Source of the DNA: a virus | Virus record (IMG/VR): IMGVR_UViG_3300037722_000226 | Span: 1 to 64,000 of that record | DNA: 64,000 bases | Reading direction: 5' to 3' (one strand) | Part shown: positions 6,599 to 52,897 of the stretch, one piece after another | Layout of the letters: each line of letters begins with the position of its first letter | Numbering within the stretch: position 1 is the first letter of the stretch | The notes under the pieces: model-generated | What the model saw: only the letters and a program-made list of their open reading frames with translations | Databases searched by the model: none | Told to the model about the DNA's origin: nothing | Made by a program: the position numbers and the translations under genes

Positions 6599-6816
6599 GC
6601 GCCTTCCTTGAGGCGCGCATTAAGGGTCTGCTGCTGCTTTCGTTCCTCGCGTTCGGCGCCGTAGTCCTCTGTGCCATCACCAACCAGCCAGTGGCCGGCG
6701 CGATCTACTTCGTCGGCGGGCTGCTCGGGCATGCCGCTGCGGCCATCGCGACCGCCGTTATTGAGAGCACGTCGCCACCATACGGTCCCGCTGATGGACC
6801 TTCGAGCGGTCGATGA
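6595..6816 (+). CDS. small membrane protein (73 aa)
   Basis: ATGA overlap. Two hydrophobic helices: LLLLSFLAFGAVVLCAI and AIYFVGGLLGHAAAAIATAVI. Confidence 0.55.
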   Translation: MSAFLEARIKGLLLLSFLAFGAVVLCAITNQPVAGAIYFVGGLLGHAAAAIATAVIESTSPPYGPADGPSSGR

Positions 6817-6944
6817 TCGCCGAGTGGCTGACCATTCTGGTCGTGTTGATGCTGGTCACGCCGCTCGGCTTGACCATCCTGGGCATGATTATTCGCGCGA
6901 TCGTCCTGCCGATCGTCTGGATGTGCTCGCTCGTCTGGAAGTAG
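6813..6944 (+). CDS. very small membrane protein (43 aa)
   Basis: ATGA overlap at 6813-6816. Hand translation: MIAEWLTILVVLMLVTPLGLTILGMIIRAIVLPIVWMCSLVWK. Below the ORF-track size cut-off. Confidence 0.45.
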   Translation: MIAEWLTILVVLMLVTPLGLTILGMIIRAIVLPIVWMCSLVWK

Positions 6945-22634: not shown

Positions 22635-23074
22635 GGCATCGTTCTCCCTTTGCGCTCGAGCTTGGTGATAAACCGCACGGCCCGGCGGATGACTTCGGCA
22701 ACCTGGATCGCCTCAGAGGCTTCCATCTCGATCGCGCTGGTGTGCTCCTTGAATTCAAGCTGAACCTTGCGCTGCTGGGTGACGTCGACCTTCATGGGTA
22801 GATGGTCTACGCCGGGCGGCACGGTGAGCACGCGCAGGCGCGCGCGGGCGAGGACCGCCATCCCAGCCTTGTCGAAGCTCTTGGACAGCCGCTCGGCCAG
22901 CTCAAGCGGCAGTATCAAACCGCCGGTCGCTTGCTGCAGCTCGAAAACCACCTTGCCGGTGTCGAGGTTCGCGTTCACACGCAGCGTCGGCGTCTCCGGG
23001 AGCTGCCTCTTGACGCCACGCAGACGGTCTGTGACCGCACGAGTGAAGCCGTCCATTGATGCCCCGATCTTCAT
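22631..23074 (-). CDS. hypothetical protein (147 aa)
   Basis: ATG at 23072-23074 in an ATGA overlap with the stop of the giant ORF. Confidence 0.55.
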   Translation of the reverse strand: MKIGASMDGFTRAVTDRLRGVKRQLPETPTLRVNANLDTGKVVFELQQATGGLILPLELAERLSKSFDKAGMAVLARARLRVLTVPPGVDHLPMKVDVTQQRKVQLEFKEHTSAIEMEASEAIQVAEVIRRAVRFITKLERKGRTMP

Positions 23075-26000
23075 TGTGGTGCCAACTTGCGACGTTCCTC
23101 CGCAACCTTGAGCCGCTTCCTGTTGATCGTTTCGACCTCTGACATATAGAACTCGAGGTCGATCCGGCGCCGCGTGTAGTCTCGTGCGAGCGCGTTGAGC
23201 TGCGTGTTCAGCGCCCGCTCCACGGTATCGAGCCGGTTCATAGCATACTGCCGATTCAGCGCAACGTCGTGCGGTTTGAGCTTGAGCCCGATCGAGCTGC
23301 TGATCGCAAGCGGCACACTGTACTCCCGCATCATCGGGTCCAGCTCGCCGGTCCAGGCCGACATGATCTTGCTGAAGTACCAGCTCCCAGGAACCCACGG
23401 AGCGGACGGCGCGGCCGACTTCCAAAGGAAATTCGCCACCTTGGCGGCCTTCTCGCCCCCAGAGTCCGTCAGGTCATTGGTGATTTCGTCGCCAGTGAAG
23501 CCCTGCTTATTGAGCATGTACTCGGCAGCGATCATCAGCGGGCCGCCGAATTGGAACGGCGCCGGGATCGGCAGCGCGCTCGAGCCCTGATTAAAGTCGA
23601 AGATGTCGCCGGCCGGGATATACCGCCGCGTGTCGAGAAAAATAGGATTCCCCCAGGCATCGTTGAACGGCGTGCGCAGCATGCGGTAGACCCCGACCCA
23701 GCTACGCCCGCGCTCTTCATCGCGAAGCGTCGCGCGCTCTTCATCCTCGTCGTCGAGATCGCCAGCGATCAAATAGCCGAGCGTGTTGAGCAGGTACGCG
23801 ACCGTGAAATACTTCGCGAGTTTCCACGGCCGATCGGCAATGGACTCGGCCACGACCGGCACGGCTCGGTAGGTATACGCGATGAACGGCAGCACGGTTT
23901 CGCGCAGCGCGTTGATCCACGGCGCACGGATGTCGTAGTTCAGAAATTGGTCGCGCGCGGCGATGGCTGCTCTGTCCGGCGTCATTCCCAAGCTCACCTT
24001 TCGCATGTAGGTCGCCATACGAAATATCTCGTCCTCGAGCCGATAGAGATCGAGACTCTTCTGGTCGGCATTCTTGATCATGCTCAGCACGCGCGTCATG
24101 ACTCCCCAGAGGCCCGTGCGCGACTCGGCTAGGTTCTGGCCCTCGATCTCTGCGAGGATCGGCTTCAGCACGTTGTCGCGGATCTCTTGCGAAATGACGT
24201 CGGCGCCGAAAGCGCCGTGCTGCAAGGCTGCTTTATAGTGCTCGTCCTTTTCTATGAACGATCGTAGGCCGCCAACGAAGTCACGCAGCCGCACGTCGGC
24301 CATGTCCATGAGCAAGATGTTGCTCATGATGTTATTGAAGTGCACGACGGGATTGCGGGCAGTTTTATTTAGCTTCCACTGCTTCATGACTTCGCGCCAG
24401 AACCCGGCCTTCTGCATCCGGCCGATCTCCACCATGTCGCGCCAAATCTCCGACCGCACGTACATGCCGGCGAGCGCGCCGTAGCGATAGGTGTTCGATT
24501 TCTCGATCTTCGTCTCGGGCACGCGGACCCAATCGGCATCGGCGTACATCCTGAGCCGGCTCTCTTCGGCGTTCGGGCTGTCGCCAGTCGGGTCCGTCTT
24601 GCTTGACCACTCAGGATTCGATGCGATGTCGTGGAAAAAGCGCCCGGATGCCAAGTCATGCGCCATCTGCTGATAGGTTTTCGCAATGGCGTAGCGCGCA
24701 TCGACGATCTCGCCCATCTGCTCGCGTTCTTCGGCCGTGAAGTCGCGCCACAGCACCAAATTACCACTGCCGACGTCGCGAACCTGAAAGATCCCGCGGT
24801 TCTCGAGCGCCGCGAACTTCGCCGGGACGGCAAGGTCGGCCGGCCAATAGATGCGCTGAAGCACGCGCTCTTTGATGGTCTTTGGCACGATGCCTTCGGC
24901 GTCTGACGTGCCTGCACCGGGCGCGCTTACGCGATCGAACACGCGGAACTTCGATCCGAGCAGCGCCGTATCGGGACGCCCCTTATGCTTTTTCCGCCCC
25001 CACCAATCCTCGGGAGCGTCGCTCAGAACGCGGTCCATGCTCTTCTTCAGGAAGATTCCGCGACCCTTGAACTGGTTGCCGATGATGCGGCGGCGGCGCT
25101 GCGTCATCACGTCGCTGGCGAACTTCGCGAGCGACGTGCGATTGGCCTCGTGATGCTTGTACGAGCGATGCAGATACGCGCCGCGGTTGCGCTCGTAGCT
25201 CTCAGCCGAGATCAATCCCAGCTCCACGGCTTCGGCGCCCATCGCGTCGATCGCCGCGCGGATCGGCACGGCGAGCCCGGCCATGTGCGAGTCCGTGACC
25301 TCTCCGCCGGTCAGCATGCGGTGCATCGTCTCAGCTTCCTTGCTGCCTACCCCTTGGTTCATGAGATCCGTCAGCACGTCCCGGCCTTCCATAAGCATCC
25401 CGCGCTCGTCAGCCTGGCGCTTGATGTCCCGCTCGACGTACTCCTTGGCGAGCCCGTAGCGATCGATCAGGCCGCGCTTGGCGGTCTCCATTGCGTGCGT
25501 GAACTTGTCGTCGATGCCGTACTTCTGAACCATGTCGCGATGCACCATGCCGGCCGTGTGGCGCAGCCAGCGAAACCGCGGCGTCTGCATCATCGCGCGC
25601 GCGTTCGACACGGCGTTATTCGCGAATGTCTTGTAGGGTTGATGGACCTTGAACACGCCCAGCTCGTTGGTCGCGCCGAAGATCGCGAACGGGGCACGGA
25701 ACAGACGATCTAGCGGCTGACCCTTGCCGCTCTTTTGCAGCAATCCATCGGCGCCGACGAGCACGCCGCGGCCGACCGAGGCCATGAAGCTCTTGCTGCG
25801 CTTCACGGCTTCTTCGCCGGCCATCAAGTTAAGCTCTGCGTCGCTGGCCGGATCGGTGAGCATGTCCACGTCGCGACTCGCTTGCATGGTCTGCGCATGG
25901 ATCGCGTCATTTTCGACAGCCGTGATAGCGCTGTCGTCGATCTTCTTGACCGTGATCAGCTCGTCATTGAACACGACGAAGTTGCGCGTGGTGCGCTCGG

Positions 26001-29000
26001 CTTTATTGGAGCGCGAACCGGAGTCTCGATATTGGATGCCGGGAATACCGAGCGCCTCGAGCGCCATCGACGCCGCGCGACTGCTCGGGTCGCCCGTCGC
26101 GACCACGAGCGCCCCGTACATTCCGCCGCCGGTTGTGTTGGGCGCCTCGAGTGCGTCTTTCAGGCCGGCCGAATGGGCCTGATCGTATGACTTGGCCAGC
26201 GCGCGCAGTCGTTCGCGAAGCGCCGCCGGCAGCTTTGCGTCCCAATTCAGCATTCGATCGACAGCCTCGTCCGGGATCTCGACCTCGTAAACGTGGCCCT
26301 CGCCGTTGACCTGGATGTCTGTTGGGTCGACGTTCTTCAATAGCTTGGCCTCGTCGCGCATCTCGCGCGCGGCGTCGCTCCTGCCTGAGCGTTCTGCGCG
26401 CGCGGCGTATTTCTCAAGATTCGCCGCGGCCTTCCCGCGCCCGATCTTCTTGGCCATGTGGAGCGCCATCGCGCGCGGCTCGCCGAAGCTGTATACCCGC
26501 CCCTTGTACGTGACGCTCTCGTACTCCTGCTCGCCACGGGCCGCCTTGCCGGCGGTTTGGTACTCAGTGGCAACCGCCTTCATCTCGGCGAAGTAGAGTC
26601 CCCACCCGAACGCCTGAACGCCCTCGCCATCGCCAATCTTGTCGAGCCTGAAATTGCCGAACCGATGCCGCGAGCCGTGGTACGCAACCATCAGATTCGC
26701 GGTCGCGTCGGCTTGGCTCATTGCTGTGTGCACCGGAGCGCCAGCGCCGGTCTTAGCGTAGCGCGACGCCTGCCGGATCAGATCGCGAGCCTCGAGCGTC
26801 GTCAGACTGAACGACGCGCCGAAGATCGACTGCAGCATGCGGTTCAGCGCAAGCACGAAGCGCCCGAAGGCGTTCTTCATGCGCTGACTCGCGGTGCCAG
26901 CCTCCATCTCGGTCGCGATCCACGCGACGATCTCGTTTCCGACGATGTTGCGGCCGGCGTTGGTTCGCATGTCCGCCCGATACGACTGCGCCAGCTCGAC
27001 GGCCATCTTCGGGAACGTCCGCAGCATGAAGTCGGCGACCATTCGGTAGTTCGAGCCGAAATACTGATAGGCCGCGTAGTGCCCCAGGATCTCGTGCACG
27101 ACCGTCTGCGTGAGCTGCCGCTTGCTCGTGATGTTATCGGCGAAGATCCACACGGCATTGCGCTCTTGAACATGCAGCCCGCGCGCCGTGCGCCGCGGAT
27201 CACGGCGATCGAGACTCTGTTTCAAGTCTTCTGGCATGCCGAGCATCTCGGCGCGCGTCGTGACGATCAGCCTGGCCGGTATGTTTTCCCAGCGAGCCGT
27301 GAACCGTTCTACAAACGCCCGCGCGGCCTTGACACCGATGCCTTTGCCCTTCTCGGCAGCCGAGCCGATGATCGGCTCTGCATCCATGTCGATGTCAGAG
27401 TCGGCCCTATCGGGCCTTGGCTCGGCAGAAGATCCTCCATCGCGACCGGCGATCTCGCGCGCGGCCTTCAAGTTTTCAATCGCCTGGAATGCAGCGCCGG
27501 CACGCTTCAGTGCGTCGATGACGGTCGCGGCCTGCACTTCGGAGATGTCCGCGCGCATTCGGTTTCCGACGCTCACGAAATCCTGGCCGATCGCGTTCAG
27601 CACCGCGCGATTCAGGTAGTACCGGCCGCCGCCGCTCTTTGCGGACAAGACCTCGATACGCAGCCCATCGCCGTTCTGTTTGATCAAGACGGCGTTGTCG
27701 CTCGAGTGCGCTTCGTGGCCAGTCCGCACGAATTCGACGACCTGATCGGCTCTACGCAGCGCGACCGGCATATCGGCCTGCGCCTTATCGTAGTTATAGC
27801 CGCGCGGCATGATGATGCCCTGGCGCACGCCGCCATCGGCATCGGTGAAGTTGATGATCGAGCCGCGGCCGCCGACGTGCTCGAAGCCGGCAAGTAGGTT
27901 CCCCGTGACGAGCGTCCGCTCTTCGCGTGCCTCGGCTTGCAGCTCATCGAACGCGCGGATCACTGTGACGTCGCCGAGGATGTGCTTCTCCGGCATGATC
28001 GCGCTGCGCGTCATCGAGAGATCGCCGACCGTCTGCGCGACGTCGAGCTGGCTCATCGGGATCGTCTGACGCCGCGACGAATCGGCCATCGCGAGCGTGA
28101 CTTTCCACGATCCGAGCGCAACCGGGTTTTTCGGCTCGCCCTTCTGCTCGACCTTGATGACGACGCCGTAGTAGTTGCCGGCGTTCGTCTGAATGCGCAC
28201 AGACTGGCCAACGAACGCCACGGACATCAGATCGCGGAAGCGGCTGACTTGCCCGTCTATTCTGGCATTGGCGTTGTCGCGCGCTTCCGGCGTTTCGAGA
28301 TCGTCGACGATTTCTCGACGGTACTCCCGCACGAGACCTTCGACTCGAGCGACGGTTTCTGAGGCGGCGGCGCGGCCGCGCAGCAACGCCGGACCCATGT
28401 CATCGGCTGAAAGTCTCGAAGGCTCGATGCCAAGCTCTTCGGCAATGAACGCGAGTACTTCCTCCGTCTTGTGCGGTTTGCCCAACCGCTTCACATCGGC
28501 CTTCTCGACGTAGACGCCATCGGCGAACGGGCTGTCGATGCCCTGCGGCGCGATGACTTGCTTGCGGTCGGTTACGCGCGCATCGAGCGCGAGCGTCCGG
28601 GCCTCGAGCACAGACTCGCCAGCGGCCTCTTTCTGGCGAAGCAAATCTTCGTACTCGGTCTCGAGCAGTTCATAGATATGCTCCTGCTCTTCGATCGGCA
28701 GCAACGGAATTCTGCCCGTGACCTTCCGCGCGGCATCGAGATAATCGAAGCCATCTTCGTCAGGCTCGCCCAGCGGCTTCCCGAGCTTCTTGTGGATCTC
28801 GTAATTGTCGGCCATGAGACGGGCCGCGATGATGTCGCCGTACTCGTTCATGAAGTCCGGCACGTTCTCGGCCTTGAGCGCGTGGCCGCGGCTCGCCGTG
28901 GTGTTGGCGTTCAAGCTCGCCATCTTCTTCGATAGCACAGCTGCCGGGCGCTTCACCGCCGGCACGTCGGCCACGAGCTGATCGTACTCGGGGAGCACGA

Positions 29001-32000
29001 CCTGTCCCGTGCGGTTGATGCGGCCAAGCATCTGCATGTGCGTATCGATGTTCTTCTCGGCCTGAGCAATGATCATTCGGCGCTTGCGCTGATCCTTGAA
29101 CTTCTCGCTCGCATGCAGAGACAGGCCCGTGCTGCCGGCCTGGTTGATGATCATCGCGTCGAGGTCGCCGCGGTTGAACCCTGAGATCGTCTCGCGGCGG
29201 CCGCGGATGCTGGTCTCGCGCGATGAACGCACGCGATAGAACGGCCCGCCCTTGCCGTAGTCGAGCGTGTGCTGCCGCCCCGTGATCTCGCCGACCTTAT
29301 AGCCGGCCTCGGAGAGCCGATTGCGGATATGGTCGATCGGCGAGACCGGCAGCGCGCTGAAGTCCATGTTGCGAATGATCTCGCGCGTGCTTTCGTAGAT
29401 GCCCACACCGATCGGCCCGATCTCGTCGTCGGTCAGGTATTTGCGCTCGCCTTTGCCCTTCTGGAATGGCTTGCGCAGCGTGATCCAGCGCGTGCGCTCG
29501 AGGTAGCGGTTAAGCAGCGCGTTGAAGTCGATCGCGATCTTGTCGCCCTGGTTGATGTTGAGCCCTTCAACGAATTCTTCGATGAACGCGCCCATCGTGT
29601 TCGAGACCGTGATGACGGGCTTTTCGCCTTTCTTCAAAGCCTCGATCGCCTGCGTTGCAGCCGCGTCAGACGTGATCGACAACAGCATTTGGTCGATCAG
29701 GTTGTGCATGATCGCCGTGAAGTTGGTCGACGCCGCGCCAGCACCGCCGGTCGATCCGTCTCCGGTGATCGACTTGCCCTCTGATTTCAGCTCCCTGTCG
29801 ATGCGCTTGGTGGCAGCCGGGACGAATTTCTCGCTGAACTCCTGAATCATCGCGAGCGCGCGGCTGTAGTCGGCGTAAGACTTGCGCGAGACGTTGACGG
29901 TTGTCGCGTTGTACACGATGCCGTCGAACGACCGCTCGCGGCGCATGTACTGACCGGCGCCCGCGAGCATCGACGCAACGACTTGCTGCATCGGCACGCC
30001 GCCCTTCTGGATCGCTTCGGCAAGATTCGAGATGTCCGATACGGCGAGTCGCATGTCGGTGCTCGCGTATAAGTCCATCACATCCGGGCGCTTCGCGTAG
30101 GTAGCCGAGCTATAGAACACGCCATGCGCGATTTGCGCGAGCTGCCGGGCGAATGTCGATCGGTTGACGATCGGCTTCTTGCCCTCCATCTGCTTCACAG
30201 ATCCGCCAGCATTGTGGCTTTCGTCGAACATCACGATGCCGCCATTGGCCATCGTCTCGAGAAAGCGCATGCGCGGCGTGACATCGCCCTTCAACGTCTG
30301 CATCTGCGAGTACGTTGTGAAAACCACATCGTATTGGCCAAGCGTGCCGGACTCTGCAATTTCGTCGAGCAGCCTGTTGTGCTCTTGAGCGCCGCCTGAT
30401 TTCAGCGTGTATTTGCCTTCTTCGTCGAGCGGCACCGCCTGAGCGGAATTGGTCATCAGAATATTGACTTCCCTGCCAAGCATCTTCTGAATGCCGATGT
30501 CCGTGAGGTCACGGTACATATCGCCGTAGAGGTTCGGCTTCTCGGTAACGAAGATCGGCGTGCGCTTCGCGCGGATCGCATAGCGGATCACGCCGGCCAC
30601 AACTCGGCCCTTACCAACGCCAGTTTGATCGCCGACGATGAATCCGGCACCGCGCTCGAGGTTATCGAGACCGAGCGCCAGCGCGTCGACTTGCTCGGCG
30701 CCGAAATACTCGCTCAGTTCGTCGGGCTTGTAGTCGAGGCGATCGGCGACGAATTGCTCGATGCTGCCGACGCGGCGCTTCAGCGACTCAAGCGCATCCT
30801 CCATCGCCGTCTGCATGTTGACGGGCACGAGCGTACCCATCGACGGCGCAGTGCTCGCCGGGCGGTACGGGACTTGGAGAAGTGATTCGCCTTCGGCGGC
30901 AGTTACCGCAACACGTCGAGGACGTCGTTCAGCGTCGTCACCGCGCTCGGCTTCGGCAGGCTTTCGCGGCTCAGGTTCAGCCGGTCGAGTATCGCCGGGT
31001 TCTCGCTCCAAAGGTCGGTCACGAATTGCTGCGGGTTCGACCGGCGCGGGCTGCTCGCGCTGTCGATCAGGCCGCGCTTCTCCGCTTCGGCCGCGATCTC
31101 GTTCATCGCGGTCTGCGGGTCGCTGCTCGATCGAATCACGCTCTCGAACCGGCGGCCGTAGGCCGACAGGAGCGCTTTCGTATTGAGCATCGAGTTTCTC
31201 CGCTAACGATTCCCAGGACTCATAGAGCCTTGGCGGCTGCACCGCGGGGAGCGGCATGGATGATTTGCCGCGCCCGCGGATCACGATCACGTCAATCGGC
31301 CATCCGGCGCCCTGCTTTTCGTACAGCTCGCCGGCCACCGTGAAGTGGTCGACGACATTGTACTGCGCATAGAGCTTGAGATAGAACTCCCGCTTGGCCT
31401 TGGAGTTGTAGGCATCCGATCGCGCCTCTTCGCTCCGGGCGAGCTTGTTGATCGAGCCGACGATCAGGACGCCGGAGCCGTCGTCTCTCATGACGTCGAG
31501 CGCCTTCATCGAGATGGCGTGATCGATCTCGCCCGTGCTGTATTCGTCGTCGACCTGGAAGCGCTCGGTCTGGCCGCGCTCGTTTTTCACGACGCCAAAT
31601 GGCGGATTACCTATGACCACATCGAAGGTGCCGCGTGGCTTCCAGCGTGCGGCGTCGTTCTCTGTGACGTCGACAAATGGCATCGTCGCGCGCAGATTCG
31701 CGGCCCGGTCGGCGTTCAGCTCGTTTGCCTTGACCATACCGGCGTCGGCCGCCTGGACGGCAGTCATGAGCAGCGCGCCGTTGCCGGCGGACGGTTCGTA
31801 GACCGTCGAATTTGACGTAATGCCAGCGGCTTGCGCAGCGAGATAGGCCAACGGCACCGGAGTCGAGTACGCCTGCTCGGCGACGCTCGTGCTCGTGCGC
31901 GTGCCCAAGCGAGGCATCTGCGCATACAGCGCCACGAGCTTCCCGTAGATCACACGCGGCGTGCCGCCGGCCATCACGATCTCGCGCGCGCGCATCGTGG

Positions 32001-35000
32001 CGCCCAGCTCGATCGCCTCATCAACCATCTTCGCATCGGCCGTGCCAGACTTCACATTGCGGCCGAGCACTTCGGCCGCGGCGCGGCGCGCTTGAATGAT
32101 CGACCCGAATCCGTCGCCGCTCGCAAAGAGGCGCGCGAACATACGGCCGAGCTTCACGACTTCGGATGCATCTCGCTCGGCGCGCGCCGATTCAAAATCA
32201 GTGATGCCCATGCTGCCAGCGCCTGGACGGAGTGGGGCGACTTCATTGATGTCAATTTCGCCGCCTACCAAAGCCCATAATTCGCTGCCGATCTCTTCCA
32301 GCTCAGCATCCGAAAGATCGCCATCTCCAGTCTCTTCCGCATGAGCCCGACCCATCTCAATCAATTCATGTTTGGTCGGCTCTCGCCGCGCGCGCGCGGC
32401 AGCGAAATCAGCGACGGGCTTAGTCTCTCGCGGCTCACTCGACGTGCTTTCCGAAATCGTGCGGTCCCGCAAACCGATGCGGATCGTGGTAATGGCGACG
32501 TCATCAGACTTTCCCGTAACCGGCTTCTTGCTCTCGCTCTGTGCCCACGCGGCGAACTTGGCCGGCTCCATCGGCATGATGCCACTGAAAATTCGAGCGG
32601 AAATGTTGTCGCTGTAAGAGCTGGCGAACGCCTCAAGCGCAGCCTGTGCCGACTCGAAGCCGATCATGACCTTGTGCTCGTCGAACGTCTTGCCGTCACT
32701 GAGCTTGTTCGTGTCGATGACGTACACGGGCAGCGTTTCGTCACTCGCGCGCGGACCCAAGAACGCATCGAGCTTGTCGCCGTCCGCACCCTCGACGTCG
32801 CCGCGCGCGTAGTGCGCTGGCATCTTGTTGAACCATGACTCGTCGCGCATCTTCCGCAATCGGTCGGCCAGTGCCCGCGTCCTGCCGAGATCACCGCCAG
32901 CTCCGCGGAGATTGCGCTCGAAGCTCTTCGCGGCCTCGAACGCTTCAGGAATGCGCCCGCCGCGCAGAAGATCGAGGACTCGTTCGTGCTCTGTCGCCCC
33001 GACGTAGCTCTTTGCCTGCTTCGCCACGTCGATCAGCGTTTGCTCATCGAACTTGAACCGATACGAGCCCTTCGGATTCTCGACTTTCCACGTGACGCCG
33101 TGGAGCTTCACGGGCTCGCCGAGCTTGTAGTTGCCCTCGCCGTTCGCTTCCTTCTGCGCCTGCGTCGGCTGCGGTCGATCGTTCTGCGGCGACGTCGCGG
33201 CGGCGTGCGCGGCGGCGTCGATGTCTTTCTGAGTCAGCGCCGCGGCCGCGACGTCGGCTTTCTCGACGTCGGCGCCGCTGTCCATCTCATCGGCGAACTC
33301 GGCCGCGCGCGGATCGTACTTCACGGCCATGTACCAGCTCTTGAGGTACGGCCGGATGGCGTCTCCCAAGTCGTCGATCATCGCCTTCGAGTACGCCGCG
33401 AACGTGCGCGCGCCCTTCTCGATGTGATAACCGGCGAGCGTGATGCCCGCCTGCATCATCTCCGGGTCGATGCCGGCGCTCGCGGTCCCGAGCTTCGATT
33501 TCAGGAGCGCGCGCGCCTTGGCCGCGGCGTCCTCGGTGAAGATTTTGTTCGGGGATGCTTTCGGCTTCTGCTTCTCGAATGCGCCAGCTCGACGAAGCGC
33601 ATCGCGCTGCGCTGATTCAGGCGTGTCGCCGTAACCCCTTTCCGAACTCCACGGAGACAGCCGTCTGGCAACGGCTGAATACTTGCCGCCGCGAACCTGT
33701 TGTTCTTGTGCGGATGTTACCGCTTGCGCCGGATCGACCTCGAAGCCTTGAGGCGCAGTTGTTATCGGCGTCGCGGTCGGCCCAGCTCCAGTCCCACGCT
33801 CTTCTTCCGTCAGATAGTCGTCGCTGCGCGCATCGCGATCAACACCCGTCCGCATACCCTCGCGAGTCGGAACGAGACTCACGGTTTCGCTTACCCGGAC
33901 GCCGCTCTCGGCGTAGGAGCGCACGCCGCTCGCGTCCTCGTAGATCGGCAAGCCGCGGGCGTTGCGGCCGATGGCGCCTGGCGGTATGGGTCCGGTTACT
34001 TCCCTCTCGCCCGCGGGTTGAACCGCGGCCTCTTCACTCCGTACTGCGGCGCGCGCACCTTCGGCGGCTGAATCTTCTTTTCCGGTCTTGGGCGGTTTAG
34101 CACGGGTCGATTGGCCATCGGCGGCATCCTTTACTTTGCGACGCGGGGTTGCGTCAGTGATGATGATTGGCTTGCGCGCAGCGCGCGCGGCGTCGGCTAT
34201 GCGGTCGGCTTCTTCGCCGCGGGGAGCTTGATCTTGATCTGCCAGCCCTTCCCCACGCCGGCTTCTTCGAGTCGCGCCTGGAGGCTGCTCACCGCGGCCC
34301 GCGCGGACCCCTTGGGTTTCGCGCTCTTGTTTGTGCTGTCGGAGTTGCTGGTCTGCTTCATTTAATGTGCTGCCAGTGCCATAGCTTATCCCAAGTCCTT
34401 CGAGAGTGATCGTTTCTCCGTCTGGGGATGTGGCCTCGATGGTGGCCATCGCCAGGCGCTCTTCGATGTGCTCCATGATGCCGGCGATTTCTTCAGGCGT
34501 GGCGCCCTCGATCGCGAACTCGTCACCCGACAAGTGATAGCCGCGATCCGTCGCGTTGCCGATCGCATCGCCGATCGCGCGCAGCATTTCATCGCCGGCT
34601 TGGTGGCCGAGCGAGTCGTTCACCCATTTGAGCGAATCAGCGTCGATGGCAACCTGGATCGGCTGTCGTTCCGCTTCGTCGTAGGCGCGGCGGTTCCTGA
34701 GTCCTGTCAGCTGGCTCGTCAGTAGCTCTGCCCGCATTTCCTCGGGAGTCATTTCCGACACGCGGGACCGGCGAGCGATGTCCTGCCGGCGGTCTTGGTC
34801 ACGCCGATCGGCCGGCGTCTGGGCGCGTACCTCCGCATCGATTTCCAGGTCGATCTCATCGAGCACGATGCCAACGGCTCTCTGCTCGCGGCCGGTCAGC
34901 TGCTCTCCGGCAATCGCTTTATCGATCGCAGTTTGGACCGCGCGCACCGTCATGCGCGGCTGCATGTTCTGAAACCACGCCGGATTGGTTGACGACGTGC

Positions 35001-36477
35001 GGCCCGTGATGCGGTCGTGCTCGTCTCGAACGTAGGCCACGCCGCCACCGGGCGTCAGATCACGGCCCATGCTCTCGAGCAGGCCGCGGTAGGTCTCTTC
35101 ACCGAGCCGTGGATCGAAAGGCTCGGCGGCCGGCGTTTCAGCCGACACGCCGATTTCGTCGCCGAGAATGGCCTCGGCATCGACCGAGCCTTGTGGGACG
35201 CCAGCGGGCGGCGGCGCGCCCGGCTGGGTCGGTTGAACAATAGGCGGGATTTCCTCGTCCGGGCCGAGCCGATCGCCTTCCCCGCGCAACCCCGTGTCAG
35301 TACGTCCAGCTCGGTCAGTACGCCCGGCTCGCTCAGGAGAGGCCGCTCCCATACCGGCGCCGAGCATGGCGCCCGACAGCGCGCCGCCGACTGCTTCCTC
35401 GAGCACGTTGTCCCAAAGGTCTCGATCGAATCCGGCGTTGCGCATGGCGATGTTCTGCGACATCGCTTCTGTGCCGGACTGAAAGAACTCCTGCAGCGCT
35501 TCTATGCTGCCGCCCTTCAACGCGCTTTTGATCAGGCCGAGATCCCGCGGCTTCAATCCGAAGGCCGACGTCATCATGGCACCGGCCGGAGCCGACAGCA
35601 TGAACGTCGTGACCAGGGTGAGCGCCGCCGCATCGCCGCTCGCGGCGCTCGCAATAATCTCCCTGGACTTCTGAAAACGCTCTCCCGGCGCCAGCCCGGA
35701 CAGCGACTCGAAAACCGCTCGGTAGTCGGCGGACTCCAGTAGCTCGTCATGGGTCATGCCCATGACCTCGCCCTGAACTTCCGCGCCGGACATCGGCGCC
35801 GCGACGCCGGCCTCGCCTAACCCGTAGCCGACTGCTGCAGCGGTTCGCGCGCCCGCGCCCGCAGCGGCAAAACTGCGCGCGAGTACGCCGCCAGCTCCGA
35901 TCCCGCCGAGCGTCGCTGGTAGCGAGCCGATCGCCATGACCTTCGCCTTGTTCCACTTATCGCCGAAGGAGCCCTGGCCCAGAAACTCAACTTCCATCGC
36001 GCGCCGTGCGGTTGGCGAGAGTCCTTCCTCCGTGATGCCGATCGCGTCCAGGTTGGTCCTGATCCACGTATCGGCAGCCTCGTGGCCTTGCTCTTGTATC
36101 CAGCGGCCAAGCTCTTCGCCCTTGACCGGCTTGCCCAGCTCCATCGGCCTGCCGCGAAGATCCAGCGGCCGCCCTTCGGCATCGCGCGGCGCAATATTCT
36201 CTCCAATCTCGCTCGCGCGCTTGCTGAACTTCTCGAGCATCCATCCCAAGCCGGCACCCATGCTCGCGAACGTCGACATCGCCATGCGGCCGTAGTCCGA
36301 CCACTCGAGCGGTTCCTCGGGGCTCCCGATCGGCCGGCGGCCTTTGATGCTGACGAGCGGCGTGCGCGGCGTCGAGTCCGTTGCCGACCCAACACCCTCT
36401 AGCGAAGGCGAAGTAGCAATTTGATCGGCAGCGGGCTCGGCCGGAACCGGCCTACGATTCAGGATCGTGACGGGCAT
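23071..36477 (-). CDS. giant polyvalent virion-module protein (4,468 aa)
   Basis: Single uninterrupted ORF. Motifs verified at nucleotide level: SGDEF (34516-34530), DGDKLD (32767-32784), NPPF (31597-31608), DESH (30214-30225), HEILGH (27079-27096). Flanked upstream by internal-virion-like proteins. Confidence 0.9.
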   Translation of the reverse strand: MPVTILNRRPVPAEPAADQIATSPSLEGVGSATDSTPRTPLVSIKGRRPIGSPEEPLEWSDYGRMAMSTFASMGAGLGWMLEKFSKRASEIGENIAPRDAEGRPLDLRGRPMELGKPVKGEELGRWIQEQGHEAADTWIRTNLDAIGITEEGLSPTARRAMEVEFLGQGSFGDKWNKAKVMAIGSLPATLGGIGAGGVLARSFAAAGAGARTAAAVGYGLGEAGVAAPMSGAEVQGEVMGMTHDELLESADYRAVFESLSGLAPGERFQKSREIIASAASGDAAALTLVTTFMLSAPAGAMMTSAFGLKPRDLGLIKSALKGGSIEALQEFFQSGTEAMSQNIAMRNAGFDRDLWDNVLEEAVGGALSGAMLGAGMGAASPERAGRTDRAGRTDTGLRGEGDRLGPDEEIPPIVQPTQPGAPPPAGVPQGSVDAEAILGDEIGVSAETPAAEPFDPRLGEETYRGLLESMGRDLTPGGGVAYVRDEHDRITGRTSSTNPAWFQNMQPRMTVRAVQTAIDKAIAGEQLTGREQRAVGIVLDEIDLEIDAEVRAQTPADRRDQDRRQDIARRSRVSEMTPEEMRAELLTSQLTGLRNRRAYDEAERQPIQVAIDADSLKWVNDSLGHQAGDEMLRAIGDAIGNATDRGYHLSGDEFAIEGATPEEIAGIMEHIEERLAMATIEATSPDGETITLEGLGISYGTGSTLNEADQQLRQHKQERETQGVRAGRGEQPPGATRRSRRGEGLADQDQAPRGEEADRIADAARAARKPIIITDATPRRKVKDAADGQSTRAKPPKTGKEDSAAEGARAAVRSEEAAVQPAGEREVTGPIPPGAIGRNARGLPIYEDASGVRSYAESGVRVSETVSLVPTREGMRTGVDRDARSDDYLTEEERGTGAGPTATPITTAPQGFEVDPAQAVTSAQEQQVRGGKYSAVARRLSPWSSERGYGDTPESAQRDALRRAGAFEKQKPKASPNKIFTEDAAAKARALLKSKLGTASAGIDPEMMQAGITLAGYHIEKGARTFAAYSKAMIDDLGDAIRPYLKSWYMAVKYDPRAAEFADEMDSGADVEKADVAAAALTQKDIDAAAHAAATSPQNDRPQPTQAQKEANGEGNYKLGEPVKLHGVTWKVENPKGSYRFKFDEQTLIDVAKQAKSYVGATEHERVLDLLRGGRIPEAFEAAKSFERNLRGAGGDLGRTRALADRLRKMRDESWFNKMPAHYARGDVEGADGDKLDAFLGPRASDETLPVYVIDTNKLSDGKTFDEHKVMIGFESAQAALEAFASSYSDNISARIFSGIMPMEPAKFAAWAQSESKKPVTGKSDDVAITTIRIGLRDRTISESTSSEPRETKPVADFAAARARREPTKHELIEMGRAHAEETGDGDLSDAELEEIGSELWALVGGEIDINEVAPLRPGAGSMGITDFESARAERDASEVVKLGRMFARLFASGDGFGSIIQARRAAAEVLGRNVKSGTADAKMVDEAIELGATMRAREIVMAGGTPRVIYGKLVALYAQMPRLGTRTSTSVAEQAYSTPVPLAYLAAQAAGITSNSTVYEPSAGNGALLMTAVQAADAGMVKANELNADRAANLRATMPFVDVTENDAARWKPRGTFDVVIGNPPFGVVKNERGQTERFQVDDEYSTGEIDHAISMKALDVMRDDGSGVLIVGSINKLARSEEARSDAYNSKAKREFYLKLYAQYNVVDHFTVAGELYEKQGAGWPIDVIVIRGRGKSSMPLPAVQPPRLYESWESLAEKLDAQYESAPVGLRPPVRERDSIEQRPADRDERDRGRSGEARPDRQREQPAPVEPAAIRDRPLEREPGDTRPAEPEPRKPAEAERGDDAERRPRRVAVTAAEGESLLQVPYRPASTAPSMGTLVPVNMQTAMEDALESLKRRVGSIEQFVADRLDYKPDELSEYFGAEQVDALALGLDNLERGAGFIVGDQTGVGKGRVVAGVIRYAIRAKRTPIFVTEKPNLYGDMYRDLTDIGIQKMLGREVNILMTNSAQAVPLDEEGKYTLKSGGAQEHNRLLDEIAESGTLGQYDVVFTTYSQMQTLKGDVTPRMRFLETMANGGIVMFDESHNAGGSVKQMEGKKPIVNRSTFARQLAQIAHGVFYSSATYAKRPDVMDLYASTDMRLAVSDISNLAEAIQKGGVPMQQVVASMLAGAGQYMRRERSFDGIVYNATTVNVSRKSYADYSRALAMIQEFSEKFVPAATKRIDRELKSEGKSITGDGSTGGAGAASTNFTAIMHNLIDQMLLSITSDAAATQAIEALKKGEKPVITVSNTMGAFIEEFVEGLNINQGDKIAIDFNALLNRYLERTRWITLRKPFQKGKGERKYLTDDEIGPIGVGIYESTREIIRNMDFSALPVSPIDHIRNRLSEAGYKVGEITGRQHTLDYGKGGPFYRVRSSRETSIRGRRETISGFNRGDLDAMIINQAGSTGLSLHASEKFKDQRKRRMIIAQAEKNIDTHMQMLGRINRTGQVVLPEYDQLVADVPAVKRPAAVLSKKMASLNANTTASRGHALKAENVPDFMNEYGDIIAARLMADNYEIHKKLGKPLGEPDEDGFDYLDAARKVTGRIPLLPIEEQEHIYELLETEYEDLLRQKEAAGESVLEARTLALDARVTDRKQVIAPQGIDSPFADGVYVEKADVKRLGKPHKTEEVLAFIAEELGIEPSRLSADDMGPALLRGRAAASETVARVEGLVREYRREIVDDLETPEARDNANARIDGQVSRFRDLMSVAFVGQSVRIQTNAGNYYGVVIKVEQKGEPKNPVALGSWKVTLAMADSSRRQTIPMSQLDVAQTVGDLSMTRSAIMPEKHILGDVTVIRAFDELQAEAREERTLVTGNLLAGFEHVGGRGSIINFTDADGGVRQGIIMPRGYNYDKAQADMPVALRRADQVVEFVRTGHEAHSSDNAVLIKQNGDGLRIEVLSAKSGGGRYYLNRAVLNAIGQDFVSVGNRMRADISEVQAATVIDALKRAGAAFQAIENLKAAREIAGRDGGSSAEPRPDRADSDIDMDAEPIIGSAAEKGKGIGVKAARAFVERFTARWENIPARLIVTTRAEMLGMPEDLKQSLDRRDPRRTARGLHVQERNAVWIFADNITSKRQLTQTVVHEILGHYAAYQYFGSNYRMVADFMLRTFPKMAVELAQSYRADMRTNAGRNIVGNEIVAWIATEMEAGTASQRMKNAFGRFVLALNRMLQSIFGASFSLTTLEARDLIRQASRYAKTGAGAPVHTAMSQADATANLMVAYHGSRHRFGNFRLDKIGDGEGVQAFGWGLYFAEMKAVATEYQTAGKAARGEQEYESVTYKGRVYSFGEPRAMALHMAKKIGRGKAAANLEKYAARAERSGRSDAAREMRDEAKLLKNVDPTDIQVNGEGHVYEVEIPDEAVDRMLNWDAKLPAALRERLRALAKSYDQAHSAGLKDALEAPNTTGGGMYGALVVATGDPSSRAASMALEALGIPGIQYRDSGSRSNKAERTTRNFVVFNDELITVKKIDDSAITAVENDAIHAQTMQASRDVDMLTDPASDAELNLMAGEEAVKRSKSFMASVGRGVLVGADGLLQKSGKGQPLDRLFRAPFAIFGATNELGVFKVHQPYKTFANNAVSNARAMMQTPRFRWLRHTAGMVHRDMVQKYGIDDKFTHAMETAKRGLIDRYGLAKEYVERDIKRQADERGMLMEGRDVLTDLMNQGVGSKEAETMHRMLTGGEVTDSHMAGLAVPIRAAIDAMGAEAVELGLISAESYERNRGAYLHRSYKHHEANRTSLAKFASDVMTQRRRRIIGNQFKGRGIFLKKSMDRVLSDAPEDWWGRKKHKGRPDTALLGSKFRVFDRVSAPGAGTSDAEGIVPKTIKERVLQRIYWPADLAVPAKFAALENRGIFQVRDVGSGNLVLWRDFTAEEREQMGEIVDARYAIAKTYQQMAHDLASGRFFHDIASNPEWSSKTDPTGDSPNAEESRLRMYADADWVRVPETKIEKSNTYRYGALAGMYVRSEIWRDMVEIGRMQKAGFWREVMKQWKLNKTARNPVVHFNNIMSNILLMDMADVRLRDFVGGLRSFIEKDEHYKAALQHGAFGADVISQEIRDNVLKPILAEIEGQNLAESRTGLWGVMTRVLSMIKNADQKSLDLYRLEDEIFRMATYMRKVSLGMTPDRAAIAARDQFLNYDIRAPWINALRETVLPFIAYTYRAVPVVAESIADRPWKLAKYFTVAYLLNTLGYLIAGDLDDEDEERATLRDEERGRSWVGVYRMLRTPFNDAWGNPIFLDTRRYIPAGDIFDFNQGSSALPIPAPFQFGGPLMIAAEYMLNKQGFTGDEITNDLTDSGGEKAAKVANFLWKSAAPSAPWVPGSWYFSKIMSAWTGELDPMMREYSVPLAISSSIGLKLKPHDVALNRQYAMNRLDTVERALNTQLNALARDYTRRRIDLEFYMSEVETINRKRLKVAEERRKLAPQ
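25942..26694 (-). other. ADP-ribosyltransferase-like (ART-PolyVal-like) domain, aa ~3262-3512
   Basis: AYHGSRHRFGNFRLDKIGDGEGVQAFGWGLYFAE ... GHVYEVEIPDEAVDRMLNWD ... GIPGIQYRDSGSR...NFVVFND gives an H-Y-E arrangement. The assignment is from memory of the family. Confidence 0.5.
28888..30705 (-). other. strawberry-notch-like SF2 helicase domain, aa ~1925-2530
   Basis: GDQTGVGKGR (motif I), MFDESHNAGG (motif II), INQAGSTGLSLH and QMLGRINRTGQ (motifs V/VI). Confidence 0.75.
31258..31980 (-). other. N6-adenine DNA methyltransferase domain (motif I then NPPF), aa ~1500-1740
   Basis: Motif I VYEPSAGNGALL and motif IV DVVIGNPPFG. Confidence 0.8.
32578..33126 (-). other. family-I inorganic-pyrophosphatase-like domain, aa ~1118-1300
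   Basis: KVENPKGSYRFKFDE resembles EIPKGSxNKYE. ADGDKLDAFLG matches the PPase signature D-[SGDN]-D-[PE]-[LIVMF]-D-[LIVMGAC] except for K at position 4. Followed by PVYVID...FDEHKVMIGF. Confidence 0.55.
34330..34722 (-). other. GGDEF-type (diguanylate-cyclase-like) domain, aa ~586-716 of the giant protein
   Basis: LTGLRNRRAY ... VAIDADSLKWVNDSLGHQAGDEML ... YHLSGDEFAI ... ISYGTG ... ADQQL follows the canonical GGDEF domain motif order. Confidence 0.7.
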
Positions 36478-40768: not shown

Positions 40769-43192
40769 TCACGTGTTCCCGACGTACTGGCGCAGCTCCC
40801 TCGCGTTGGAGGCGCAATAGGCCGCCTCGACGCCTGTGATGCTCTTTACTTCGACTTGCCACTTGCGGCCCTTGCCGAGCTGGCTTCTTACGCGATGCAG
40901 GTCGTCGTTCGCCACGACGATCGAGTCGTAGACCTCACCGTCCATGTAGAGAGTGACCGTCGCGGGATAAAGATCGGCGTCGACTTTCACGACGCCGACA
41001 AAGGTAGGCGTGGCCGCCATGAATTCTCGGGATTTCCATCTGAGCGCTCCCAGGATGTTGTTCGGGTCGCCCTCCCACCGATAGATGCCGAGCACAGGCT
41101 CTGGCGAGCCAAGCGACGCGATCATATACAGCTCATCGGTACCGGGATCGCTCCACAGCTCGTGCGCGCCGAACGAGAGTCGCGTCAGTGCCGATGACGG
41201 ATTCTGCGGGTCGAGAATCAGGCCGCGCTTGTTGATGGGAAGAGCTTCTTCATCGGGCGGATCGTAGGACCAGATGTAGCGGTTGCCGTATTTGCTGGCA
41301 ATGAACGATGCCGGATTGAGCGCGGCCCACTGATTGTCGTTGAAGAGACTTTGCGTGATGACTCGCGCCTCGCCTTGCGAGAGCATGACGAGGCCGCGGA
41401 GCGACGGATACACCACGGCGTAACCGATGTCGACCATCCCGCGCTTCGAGAGATTCGGGTAGGCGGCTTCGACATACTCGTCGCTCATCGAGTCCGGGTG
41501 AATCCCCGTGACCAGCACGGGTCTGCCTTTGGTCGTGACGGCGATCGACGCACCGAAGGCCGCAATGCCCACGATCTCGTCTTTCATCGCGCGACGGTAG
41601 GCGAGCGGCCATGCGTGCGGTTGATACGGCTCGCAAAGCAATAGCTCATTGCCGAGGAACGCAGCATAGAGACCGTTCGGCAGCTCGATGATGCCGATCA
41701 TCTCGTCCGGCGGCATGTCCCAGCGCACGAGCACGCCGTTCGGCGACGTGTACTGGCTCGGCAGCACGCGGCCCAATGCGACGCCGCGTATGTTGTCGAT
41801 ATAGGTGTCGGCGGGTGGGTCAGGGCCGAATTCCCACGTGTCGATGTCGATCTCGTCGACGAACAGAAATTCTTCTTGCGTCGCTCCGACCGCGAGCCGA
41901 TAGATGTAAATCTTTGTGTACGGCCGGCCGTCATCTGGCGGCGCGGGGAAGTTCGAGAGCGTGACGCTCTCGCCGTCAGCAATGGTGATGAACTCAGAGG
42001 CAGGAGACGGCGCGCTCTCAATGTCGTGATTGTCGAGCGTTACTACATAAGTGATCGCATAGGTGCGCGACTGGCGATCGACGTCCGGAAAGACCTGTGT
42101 CCAAGTCGCCGGCACGCTATCGCTATAGGTGCCCGTGATGCCGCCAGCGTCGACGATCGCAATTTGCCCGCCCGTTTGAAAGCCGATGATCGTGACCGGC
42201 GCGAGATTCAGGTTCTCGAGGTTGCCGGTGCCGACCACACCAGAAAGCTGGATGCGATCACCCGCCGAAAGCCCGTGATCGGTCGCGCCCAAGTCGACCA
42301 GTAAACGGCCGCTTGCCGATTGAACCGAAGCGAATTGCTTCCGGTTATCAGGCGTGCCGCCGTCGTTCGTTGATTTGAAGCCGTGCTGAGTCCACAACCG
42401 GAACACGTGCGAACCGAACGGCGGCGCATAAGTGAACGAGTAGTCGCTCGCTGGGTAGCTGTCGGTTGTCCATGTGTTCCGCGTGCTCGTATTCTTCGGC
42501 AGGCTGAGCGTGACTTCCTTGCGGAAGATCTCGGTACCTGAGCCTGGCGAGCCCGTGCTCGGGTCCATCTCGACCCACACGAACACAGCGGACGTGTAGT
42601 TATGACGCTGCGCGAAGTCCATCGTCACTGAGATGACTAACGACATCAGCCCGTCGACGTCGAGCGTAGACTGTACCGAATGCGGGTCGCGGTTCGCCGT
42701 GACGTCGTACTCACCGTCGCCGATCGTGCCGCCGATCTCCAGATACGGATCGATCGCGGCGACGGTGCCGGAGGCTTCTACTTCGAGCGGGTCAGTGGCG
42801 ATGACCGAGACAGCCGAGGCAGGCGCCGGCACCCCAAGATCGAACGCCGCATAGGGCGGCCCGGCCGTCAAAGAGTCAGTGTTGCCGATCTTCGGCACGC
42901 CTGAGCCGGTCCAATACAGTTCATCGAGGCCGGCGACTTGGGACTTCACGACATCGACGTCGGTATCCCAATGCAGCCAGTAGACAGTACCCACTCCGGG
43001 CGGCTGATAGCGAAAGAACGACTGCACTGCGCCGTCGATCGTCTCGCTGTACTCGAGCAGCGGCGCGCGCCACGTGTCGAGCACGCCGCTCCAGATTTTG
43101 CAATTTTCGGCGATCGTCGCTTCGTTGTAACCAAGCTGGCGAGCGTCCACCGCCGGACGCTCGCCCATGAACGATTGCAACGCGATCAGCAC
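40769..43192 (-). CDS. large tail (nozzle / tail-tubular-B-like) protein (807 aa)
   Basis: The call rests on size and position, which match podovirus tail tubular B proteins. No motif-level proof. Confidence 0.6.
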   Translation of the reverse strand: MLIALQSFMGERPAVDARQLGYNEATIAENCKIWSGVLDTWRAPLLEYSETIDGAVQSFFRYQPPGVGTVYWLHWDTDVDVVKSQVAGLDELYWTGSGVPKIGNTDSLTAGPPYAAFDLGVPAPASAVSVIATDPLEVEASGTVAAIDPYLEIGGTIGDGEYDVTANRDPHSVQSTLDVDGLMSLVISVTMDFAQRHNYTSAVFVWVEMDPSTGSPGSGTEIFRKEVTLSLPKNTSTRNTWTTDSYPASDYSFTYAPPFGSHVFRLWTQHGFKSTNDGGTPDNRKQFASVQSASGRLLVDLGATDHGLSAGDRIQLSGVVGTGNLENLNLAPVTIIGFQTGGQIAIVDAGGITGTYSDSVPATWTQVFPDVDRQSRTYAITYVVTLDNHDIESAPSPASEFITIADGESVTLSNFPAPPDDGRPYTKIYIYRLAVGATQEEFLFVDEIDIDTWEFGPDPPADTYIDNIRGVALGRVLPSQYTSPNGVLVRWDMPPDEMIGIIELPNGLYAAFLGNELLLCEPYQPHAWPLAYRRAMKDEIVGIAAFGASIAVTTKGRPVLVTGIHPDSMSDEYVEAAYPNLSKRGMVDIGYAVVYPSLRGLVMLSQGEARVITQSLFNDNQWAALNPASFIASKYGNRYIWSYDPPDEEALPINKRGLILDPQNPSSALTRLSFGAHELWSDPGTDELYMIASLGSPEPVLGIYRWEGDPNNILGALRWKSREFMAATPTFVGVVKVDADLYPATVTLYMDGEVYDSIVVANDDLHRVRSQLGKGRKWQVEVKSITGVEAAYCASNARELRQYVGNT

Positions 43193-52550: not shown

Positions 52551-52897
52551 CTATACCTCGTGCGTCCCTTCAACGCCGCGGGCCTCTCTCGCGCGCGTTC
52601 GATGATGTAGCCAGTGCTGCGCTTCCTCGAGCTTCGTGAGCGCGAGCGCATTCTCGCGACATGCGTACGGGCCGCGCTGGAATGCTTGGAGCCGGTCGAT
52701 GACGATCGCGATCAGTGCCTCGTGCGTGATGCCGTTCACGCCGACTTCGGGGATCGGGCCATTCTGGAAGTCGATCCACAGCGCGCTCCCGTGATGAGGT
52801 ACTTATGGTTCGCGCCGCCGGAACCCGGCTCGTCGCCGACCTCGATTCTCAGGCGCTCATTGGCCGGATTGACCTTGTGTGTAGTTATCTCGCGCAT
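52551..52897 (-). pseudogene. conserved small phage gene split by a -1 frame change (53-aa N-terminal piece 52736..52897; 62-aa C-terminal piece 52551..52739)
   Basis: Frame A gives MREITTHKVNPANERLRIEVGDEPGSGGANHKYLITG.., stopping at TGA 52736-52738. Frame B is open from 52802 and encodes SALWIDFQNGPIPEVGVNGITHEAL...RENALALTKLEEAQHWL...RGVEGTHEV, but its first start codon is the GTG at 52737-52739. Confidence 0.55.

Follow-up and report, generated by a model that had tools for sequence, protein, structure and literature searches.

A 64,000-nucleotide stretch of viral DNA (positions 1 to 64,000 of IMG/VR record IMGVR_UViG_3300037722_000226, hereafter the window) carries an uninterrupted open reading frame (ORF) of 4468 amino acids (23071..36477) that encodes a giant polyvalent protein, into which a GGDEF domain of the kind found in diguanylate cyclases is inserted ~570 residues from the N-terminus. 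Residue numbers refer to this ORF, nucleotide coordinates refer to the window, and all features lie on the minus strand unless stated otherwise. A reading of the sequence alone had placed a GGDEF-type cyclase domain at 34330-34722. This interval is coded on the minus strand, where it translates to residues 586-716, and the plus-strand frame at the same coordinates is interrupted by stops throughout. The complete module, together with N-terminal helices and a C-terminal extension that are specific to the clade described below, spans residues 565-745 (34243..34785), as judged from its end-to-end alignment with 17 relatives that are solo GGDEF proteins. Within it, the Pfam GGDEF core covers residues 590-720 (34318..34710; PF00990, 44-52 bits versus a cutoff of 23.8).

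Every motif listed in the sequence-only reading is present in the translation, and in the order in which it was given. LTGLRNRRAY (residues 590-599, 34681-34710) is followed by IDADSLKWVNDSLGHQAGDEML (residues 611-632, 34582..34647), which holds the metal-binding D612 and the guanine-contacting N620 and D629 just as they had been assigned. The signature SGDEF, within YHLSGDEFAI, lies at exactly 34516-34530 (residues 650-654), and ISYGTG (residues 697-702) and ADQQL (residues 708-712) complete the series. RAGRGEQPPG (residues 725-734, 34276..34305) marks the conserved C-terminal extension of the clade.

The identity of the segment as a GGDEF domain is near certain. The isolated segment scored 52.2 bits (E=8e-14) against PF00990 and the whole protein 44.2 bits, both above the gathering cutoff, and the match spans profile positions 5-159 of 161; judged from the sequence scores, it is far beyond chance. 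A phmmer search of all PDB sequences recovered 41 chains, all of which contain a GGDEF domain and most of which carry the name diguanylate cyclase, with WspR at the top (E=1.5e-7) and DosC and PleD also among the matches. An AlphaFold2 model of residues 565-745, calculated from the alignment with the 17 relatives, had a mean predicted local distance difference test (pLDDT) value of 94.4 and a predicted template modelling score (pTM) of 0.87. When this model was compared to the PDB with Foldseek, the best 50 matches were all GGDEF domains (E values from 2e-9 to 7e-7), led by WspR (3bre), a Thermotoga maritima protein (4urg), SiaD, DosC and PleD. The TMq values of these matches were 0.48-0.63, the query carrying extra N- and C-terminal elements. 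Both the profile search and the structural comparison thus bear out the palm-domain call of the earlier reading.

The closest relatives of the domain are not cellular cyclases. When residues 540-760 were searched against 5.8 billion proteins, the top matches were short proteins of 147-353 residues that consist of a GGDEF domain only (35-51% identity, E values from 7e-44 to 1e-14), and cellular sensor-GGDEF proteins began only at E>5e-12. Alignment with the solo relatives defined a set of hallmarks, namely M-[ST]-P-x-E...L-T-D-x-LTG-x-x-NRRA in the N-terminal part, D-x-DSLKWVND and [HR]-x-[SG]GDEF in the centre, and K-x-x-R-E-x-x-G-x-RAGRGE-x-PP at the C-terminus. The window domain carries all of them, while canonical GGDEFs do not share them, and its identity to clade members is 35-60% overall. 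By these sequence characters the window domain belongs to a phage-specific clade, which we call mini-GGDEF, and the motif definition separates phage mini-GGDEFs from cellular sensor cyclases in annotation.

The clade is large, and most of its members appear within giant proteins. An exhaustive search with the clade profile over 1.84 billion cluster representatives recovered 1119 representatives at E<=1e-30; among the best 145 new ones, 115 have at least 1000 residues and 82 at least 2000 (median 2239), with the domain in an internal position. IMG/VR encodes a relative at 135 viral loci, and in the best 80 of these the domain lies in ORFs of at least 1000 residues at 61 loci (many of the ORFs being cut by the 10-kb flank) and in complete ORFs of fewer than 400 residues at 16. 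Among species-representative genomes, 5 of 12 loci embed it in ORFs of 1636-3119 residues, in assemblies of Gammaproteobacteria, Geopsychrobacter, Spirochaetes, Cocleimonas and Noviherbaspirillum, and these giant ORFs carry LPD1, LPD5, LPD38, ART-PolyVal, KfrB or a methylase-helicase dyad. The BFVD holds a 1143-residue viral protein fragment with 53% identity and a TM-score of 0.91 to our model. A curated collection of 50,697 phage records yielded clade members only as ~150-residue solo proteins of Yuavirus and Vojvodinavirus (38-42% identity), its remaining matches being weak canonical GGDEFs; no embedded copy was found in an isolate phage among these records.

Only residues ~550-750 of the window protein are common to the other giants with a GGDEF domain, the remainder being mosaic, and none of 80 viral giants that share the helicase of the window protein (47-60% identity; IMG/VR loci L099-L178) has a GGDEF domain. 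Since the helicase-sharing giants lack it and the rest of the window protein is mosaic, the domain is an accessory module shuffled among polyvalent proteins. We note that these 80 giants, 16 of which carry an InPase domain, show free module swapping in general. Eight clade proteins (P0051-P0058) contain two mini-GGDEF copies in tandem, as does a further locus (L010:1725-6632, copies at ORF residues 353-526 and 629-801). Such duplications, in which both copies are intact, fit the two-half-site mechanism of GGDEF cyclases and hint at a catalytic dimer formed within one protein.

Conservation of the active site was analyzed over 174 domains from 166 proteins, with counts for the signature, for RxxD and for the residues before the signature taken over 172 domains. 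In a HMMER alignment to WspR, IDADSLKWVNDSLGHQAGDEML falls on the corresponding 22-residue WspR segment, with D612 aligned to its 'IDVD' part, and HLSGDEFA falls on RYGGEEFA. In the published PleD numbering (Chan et al. 2004), D612 corresponds to D327 (metal), N620 and D629 to N335 and D344 (guanine), S650-G-D-E-F654 to the signature G368-G-E-E-F372, and K716 to K442 (phosphate). D612 and N620 are conserved in 100% of the domains and are lost in none of the 174; D629 is conserved in 93%, with Asn in 6%, and the spacing between N620 and D629 is the canonical nine residues. G651, D652 and E653 are conserved in 99% and F654 in 94%, and the [x]G[DE][DE] signature is lost in only two domains. The signature reads SGDEF in 123 of the 172 domains, GGDEF in 33 and AGDEF in 4; SGDEF and AGDEF variants can be active cyclases. 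K716 (99%) has the canonical +7 spacing to the AD motif, and the nearest Arg, R719 (95%), is at +10 rather than +11. More invariant Arg residues, R725 and R728, are found in the extra tail, where R725, R728, G729 and P732 are each conserved in about 97%. This G-x-RAGRGE-x-PP extension (residues 723-734, 34276-34311) follows the last canonical GGDEF helix, is modelled with a pLDDT of about 91, and is absent from cellular GGDEFs.

The RxxD inhibitory site (I-site), five residues upstream of the signature, is indeed missing, as the sequence-only reading had held: the window domain has NATD in the canonical register, and RxxD occurs in only 4 of the 172 clade domains. Two residues before the signature, where PleD has R366, His is found in 130 of 172 domains, including the window's own (H648), and Arg in 41. 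Helix alpha1 is ~11 residues shorter than in canonical domains and several loops are trimmed, so that 131 residues span 155 profile positions.

Conservation is concentrated at exactly the catalytic positions, while the columns of the seed alignment average ~28% identity. This argues for purifying selection on catalysis in the clade, and we consider the window domain to be probably a competent enzyme. A non-catalytic GGDEF, serving for GTP binding or as a scaffold or interaction module in the manner of degenerate cellular GGDEFs, is quite improbable by comparison with what such domains look like: they lose the acidic signature and the metal ligands, whereas here D612, N620, G651, D652, E653 and K716 are 99-100% conserved. 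What speaks for it is the short alpha1, the SGDEF variant, the His in place of Arg and the lack of a recognised dimerisation or sensor domain, together with the precedent of degenerate GGDEFs that have other roles and of the YybT/GdpP GGDEF, for which an ATPase activity is cited in PMC7824862.

GTP is the expected substrate because the Asp at the position of PleD D344 is conserved, and cyclic diguanylate (c-di-GMP) is the product that we favour from the residues of the guanine site. Alternatively, an active palm cyclase could make another dinucleotide, such as cyclic GMP-AMP (cGAMP), cyclic di-AMP (c-di-AMP) or a mixed-linkage or linear species, that would act as a decoy or competitor in cyclic-oligonucleotide-based anti-phage signalling (CBASS), type III CRISPR or Panoptes-like signalling. 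The His at the PleD R366 position, the Ser that opens the signature, the Arg-rich tail and the 6% of domains with Asn at the specificity position would all agree with an altered product, and a homologue of the Tad1 type of nucleotide sponge is encoded in the same phage, although its gene is apparently broken by a frame switch. In Hypr GGDEFs, cGAMP synthesis is linked to a Ser in place of PleD D344, while in the mini-GGDEF clade the guanine-reading residues are retained (N620 in 100%, D629 in 93%), and the window domain is closest, in sequence as in structure, to ordinary diguanylate cyclases, not to Cas10 or mCpol. Thus we regard a different product as unlikely, even though minimal palm cyclases of the mCpol/OptS kind make 2',3'-c-di-AMP and related products (PMC12657218) and interference with host nucleotide responses has been suggested for polyvalent proteins by Iyer et al. 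(PMC5512222).

The protein that carries the domain contains several unrelated enzymatic domains, of which GGDEF, InPase and a superfamily 2 (SF2) helicase score above their cutoffs and a methylase and ART-PolyVal below. A Gly/Ala-rich hydrophobic N-terminal region (residues 122-387, 35317..36114) is common to DarB-like giants of the Bcep22 type and to the N-terminus of the N4 virion RNA polymerase (phrog_10089, E=9e-13; phrog_2206, E=5e-10). It has hydrophobic stretches at residues 180-200 and 274-303, and may represent an ejection or membrane module shared by giant podovirus virion proteins. A second DarB-like segment lies just after the GGDEF module (residues 764-1093, 33199..34188) and matches positions 1087-1365 of phrog_10089 (E=3.5e-47), a 4647-position profile of Bcep22-type giants annotated as 'DarB-like antirestriction'; by tblastn, the same region matches 'DarB-like antirestriction' genes of PEp14, Ralstonia phages and PBC5.

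Further along are a type-I inorganic pyrophosphatase of the polyvalent type (InPase; residues 1211-1312, 32542..32847; PF18823, 79.5 bits) and a putative N6-adenine DNA methyltransferase region (residues 1537-1690, 31408..31869), for which both matches are sub-threshold (Eco57I PF07669, 23.5 bits versus a cutoff of 25.3; N6_Mtase PF02384, 15.9 bits versus 20.4). A Strawberry-notch-like SF2 helicase follows (residues 1942-2549, 28831..30654; AAA_34, 90.9 bits; Helicase_C_4, 74.6 bits). An HExxH motif, HEILGH (residues 3128-3133, 27079..27096), read directly from the translation, marks a candidate zincin-type processing peptidase, an activity that has been proposed for polyvalent proteins, and the region around it (residues 3050-3250) is common to 14 other giant ORFs that bear a GGDEF. 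A putative ADP-ribosyltransferase (ART) of the ART-PolyVal/PARP-like type (residues 3260-3313, 26539..26700) is a weak match at 26.1 bits to PF18760, under its cutoff of 31.2. Pfam scans of residues 1-560, 2550-3260 and 3310-4468 gave no family, the HExxH region included, and the last ~1150 residues (3314-4468, 23074-26538) gave no match in either Pfam or PHROG scans; parts of this C-terminal region are common to only 3-4 viral ORFs with a GGDEF.

The giant gene is encoded within a virion structural module, in agreement with the placing of the domain inside a virion polyvalent protein in the sequence-only reading. The same strand carries, in the order of transcription, a separate DNA methyltransferase of 558 residues upstream of the portal region (57491-59167), the portal (52910-55075), a putative scaffold, the major capsid protein (PF13252) at 49507-50739, a gene for an internal virion protein at 40769-43192, genes for tail-fibre-like and virion structural proteins, then the giant ORF and, after it, two tail-fibre genes. 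The capsid is of the type found in 933W/Stx phages, Bcep22 and Ralstonia podoviruses, with Achromobacter phage CF418P1 as the best match (47%). From this gene content, the gene lies in the structural module of a podovirus of the 933W/Bcep22 type. No close relative was found among isolate phages, and the window's relatives are proteobacterial.

Three lines of evidence point to packaging and ejection of the protein: its location in the structural module, its homology to phrog_10089 and to the N-terminus of the N4 virion RNA polymerase, and proteomics of a related virion. In JC1, a Bcep22-like podovirus, a DarB-like protein of 4515 residues (gp69) encoded at the same kind of position was detected by mass spectrometry, with 51 unique peptides, in CsCl-purified virions (PMC9144972), and the N-terminal domain of the N4 polymerase is reportedly needed for genome injection, according to unpublished data cited in PMC4496689. 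By analogy with these proteins, delivery of the window protein together with the DNA is a reasonable inference, and one that we hold to be fairly likely.

A different view of the same gene order would have the cyclase work in the cell that produces it, or in the lysogen, and raise c-di-GMP before lysis or during lysogeny, with a protein that is not ejected or is inactive afterwards; biofilm or surface changes and superinfection exclusion would be possible effects. The late position of the gene within the structural module is compatible with this, as is the hyper-biofilm formed by lysogens of Bordetella phage LK3, whose GGDEF protein is a solo member of the clade, a correlative observation (PMC8471281). 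We consider it unlikely, given that the domain is found overwhelmingly inside giants of the packaged type, beside segments that are common to ejected proteins. Structural genes are, moreover, normally silent in lysogens.

The reading that we prefer is thus that of an unregulated diguanylate cyclase delivered with the phage DNA, to which, as a whole chain, we assign a probability of roughly 55%. In this scheme, the giant protein would be produced late, loaded into the capsid and ejected into the next host along with the DNA. In that cell two copies of the domain would dimerise head to head, perhaps once the candidate HExxH peptidase has cut the giant protein, and would convert two GTP into c-di-GMP and two pyrophosphates (PPi). 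With neither a sensory partner nor an RxxD product-inhibition site, the reaction would run without restraint, and c-di-GMP in the host would rise in the first minutes of infection. The consequence could be host takeover, through changes in motility, pili or the cell surface, or else interference with nucleotide-based immunity.

Several points weigh against this reading. The phage is represented by a metagenomic contig (sequencing run SRR12682375, 67.5 kb, 62% GC), and the homology to proven virion proteins is limited to parts of the N-terminal 1100 residues. As the product of a late gene, the domain is present in the producing cell too. The clade as a whole departs from canonical cyclases in its short alpha1, its His for Arg (76%), its Ser-first signature and its RAGRGE-PP tail, and these deviations could alter activity or product; our literature search turned up no study that tests a clade member by biochemistry or genetics. 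No c-di-GMP riboswitch was detected in the window by an Rfam gathering scan, and no PilZ, EAL or HD-GYP domain in Pfam and PHROG scans of ~35 window ORFs (which did not cover every small ORF), so that no receiver of c-di-GMP is evident on the phage side.

If the domain is indeed active and ejected, the phage would rewrite a global bacterial second messenger ahead of any phage gene expression, a form of host takeover for which there is no experimental precedent. Culturable members of the clade exist, in YuA-like Pseudomonas phages and in Bordetella phages of the genus Vojvodinavirus, and the prediction made in 2017 by Iyer et al., discussed below, is therefore directly testable.

A bolder version of the delivered cyclase would be an anti-defence weapon, in which a flood of dinucleotide at DNA entry jams or pre-empts cyclic-nucleotide immunity. 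The dinucleotide could keep Panoptes-like guards silent while a Tad1-like sponge removes immune signals, or it could compete at effectors of the CBASS/STING type. We view this version as improbable; if it holds, no earlier phage would be known to inject a second-messenger synthase for counter-defence.

A homologue of Tad1 (Thoeris anti-defence 1) is encoded between the portal and scaffold genes (52551-52897). A 62-residue ORF (52551-52739) matches residues 71-132 of PDB entry 8kbb (E=8e-19) and is narrowly above the cutoff of the Pfam family Acb2_Tad1_hairpin. Its N-terminal part is read in another frame (ORF 52736-52897), and the switch of frame falls near 52780-52795; the manually spliced protein aligns with Tad1 structures over nearly the full length of the latter, with ~10 residues missing. 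From the sequence, this homologue appears to represent a pseudogene, a short deletion or an assembly error. That one phage encodes a predicted dinucleotide synthase alongside a homologue of a nucleotide sponge invites an anti-defence reading, albeit a speculative one.

The sequence-only reading had remarked, with due hedging, that a GGDEF domain in a phage virion protein did not seem to have been reported; this proved wrong. GGDEF domains in polyvalent proteins were described by Iyer, Burroughs, Anand, de Souza and Aravind (J Bacteriol 2017, PMC5512222), who defined the polyvalent class, found GGDEF 'not very widespread' in it, proposed a role in cyclic-nucleotide interference and gave as a 'dramatic example' a giant protein of an Acetonema longum prophage (WP_004096050.1) that combines GGDEF with a SWI2/SNF2 ATPase, an adenine methylase, a zincin peptidase and an ART. 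Phage GGDEFs of the solo type, YuA gp44 among them, are likewise documented. The domain call and the functional idea of the sequence-only reading were therefore right, yet anticipated. The Pfam families InPase and ART-PolyVal also stem from the work of Iyer et al.

Compared on the basis of their published description, the GGDEF-bearing polyvalent proteins of Iyer et al. resemble the window protein in placing GGDEF inside a giant (pro)phage protein with ATPase, methylase, zincin-type and ART regions. Delivery with the DNA is predicted and a cyclic-nucleotide role proposed for both, and InPase, too, is a domain of polyvalent proteins. The differences lie in the extent of the family, which with 1119 representatives is large, and in the host lineage (62% GC and proteobacterial relatives for the window). 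What the present sequence comparisons add is a motif definition that joins solo proteins of the YuA gp44 type with the embedded copies, the observation that uncultured phages hold many such copies, an active site that is conserved throughout the clade although the I-site is lost, and a negative control on the link to InPase.

The solo proteins of Yuavirus (YuA gp44, MP1412) and Vojvodinavirus (Bordetella phages LK3 and CN1) belong to the same clade as the window domain, with 38-42% identity over the whole module and with DSLKW, SGDEF and RAGRGE-PP in common, and they are annotated as diguanylate cyclases; by Foldseek, the CN1 protein matches our model with E=1e-14 and TM-scores of 0.69-0.81. 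Unlike the window domain, they are stand-alone proteins of ~150-160 residues, encoded outside any virion protein, in a non-structural gene block of siphoviruses beside an anti-restriction gene. In YuA, this block precedes the terminase genes and gp44 stands directly upstream of the anti-restriction gene, a location that would suit a function required shortly after DNA entry. We note that gp44 and the putative anti-restriction gene gp45 (5968-6926 of the YuA locus) have annotated promoters on either side that depend on a phage cofactor, and that their pairing echoes the combination of GGDEF and DarB-like segments in the window protein. The short GGDEF of YuA is mentioned in a review on c-di-GMP (PMC10333796), and that of the Bordetella phages has been annotated, with hyper-biofilm lysogens noted but no mechanistic link drawn (PMC8471281).

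With PleD and WspR the window domain shares the palm fold, the metal Asp, the guanine-contacting Asn and Asp, the [G/S]G[D/E]EF hairpin and the phosphate Lys. It differs from them in lacking RxxD and any receiver or sensor domain, in its shorter alpha1 and loops, in the His for Arg and in the extra tail, and it matches them at E values of only ~1e-7. The giants Bcep22 gp75, JC1 gp69 and P1 DarB are similar to the window protein in size (~4,500 residues) and in their place in the morphogenesis module of podoviruses with 933W-like capsids. The PHROG profile of the Bcep22 and JC1 giants is matched by the window protein in two N-terminal segments, and the methylase-helicase dyad is present in both, but no GGDEF was found in any giant of a Burkholderia or Ralstonia phage. 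The mCpol/OptS synthases of Panoptes are, as is predicted for the window domain, small palm-domain makers of cyclic dinucleotides that lack regulatory domains and take part in phage-host conflict; unlike it, mCpol is host-encoded and has nearly no GGDEF motif. Membership of the window domain in the mCpol or Cas10 families was rejected, as PF00990 is its sole profile match and its structural neighbours are all GGDEF cyclases.

Since cyclisation releases two PPi and an InPase domain is present in the same protein, we suspected that the two activities might be coupled. InPase shares the ORF in 16 GGDEF loci, and among the closest viral relatives it is often directly adjacent to GGDEF, on either side; in two metagenomic phages, solo GGDEF genes share an operon with large InPase proteins (loci L002 and L005). 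A functional pair devoted to PPi removal was nevertheless unsupported: InPase occurs in 16 of the 80 GGDEF-less giants that share the helicase and likewise in 16 of the 80 loci of the IMG/VR GGDEF set (18 of 96 once 16 GGDEF loci from outside IMG/VR are added). With no enrichment of InPase, the pairing remains only a biochemical possibility, and adjacency among close relatives may reflect common descent.

The far end of the contig carries unusual cargo on the plus strand. A MoxR-type AAA+ ATPase with the bpMoxR domain of MoxR-vWA-beta-propeller ternary systems (175 bits) is encoded at 2378-3523, and is followed at 3660-5687 by a 675-residue protein with a phage zinc-finger domain.

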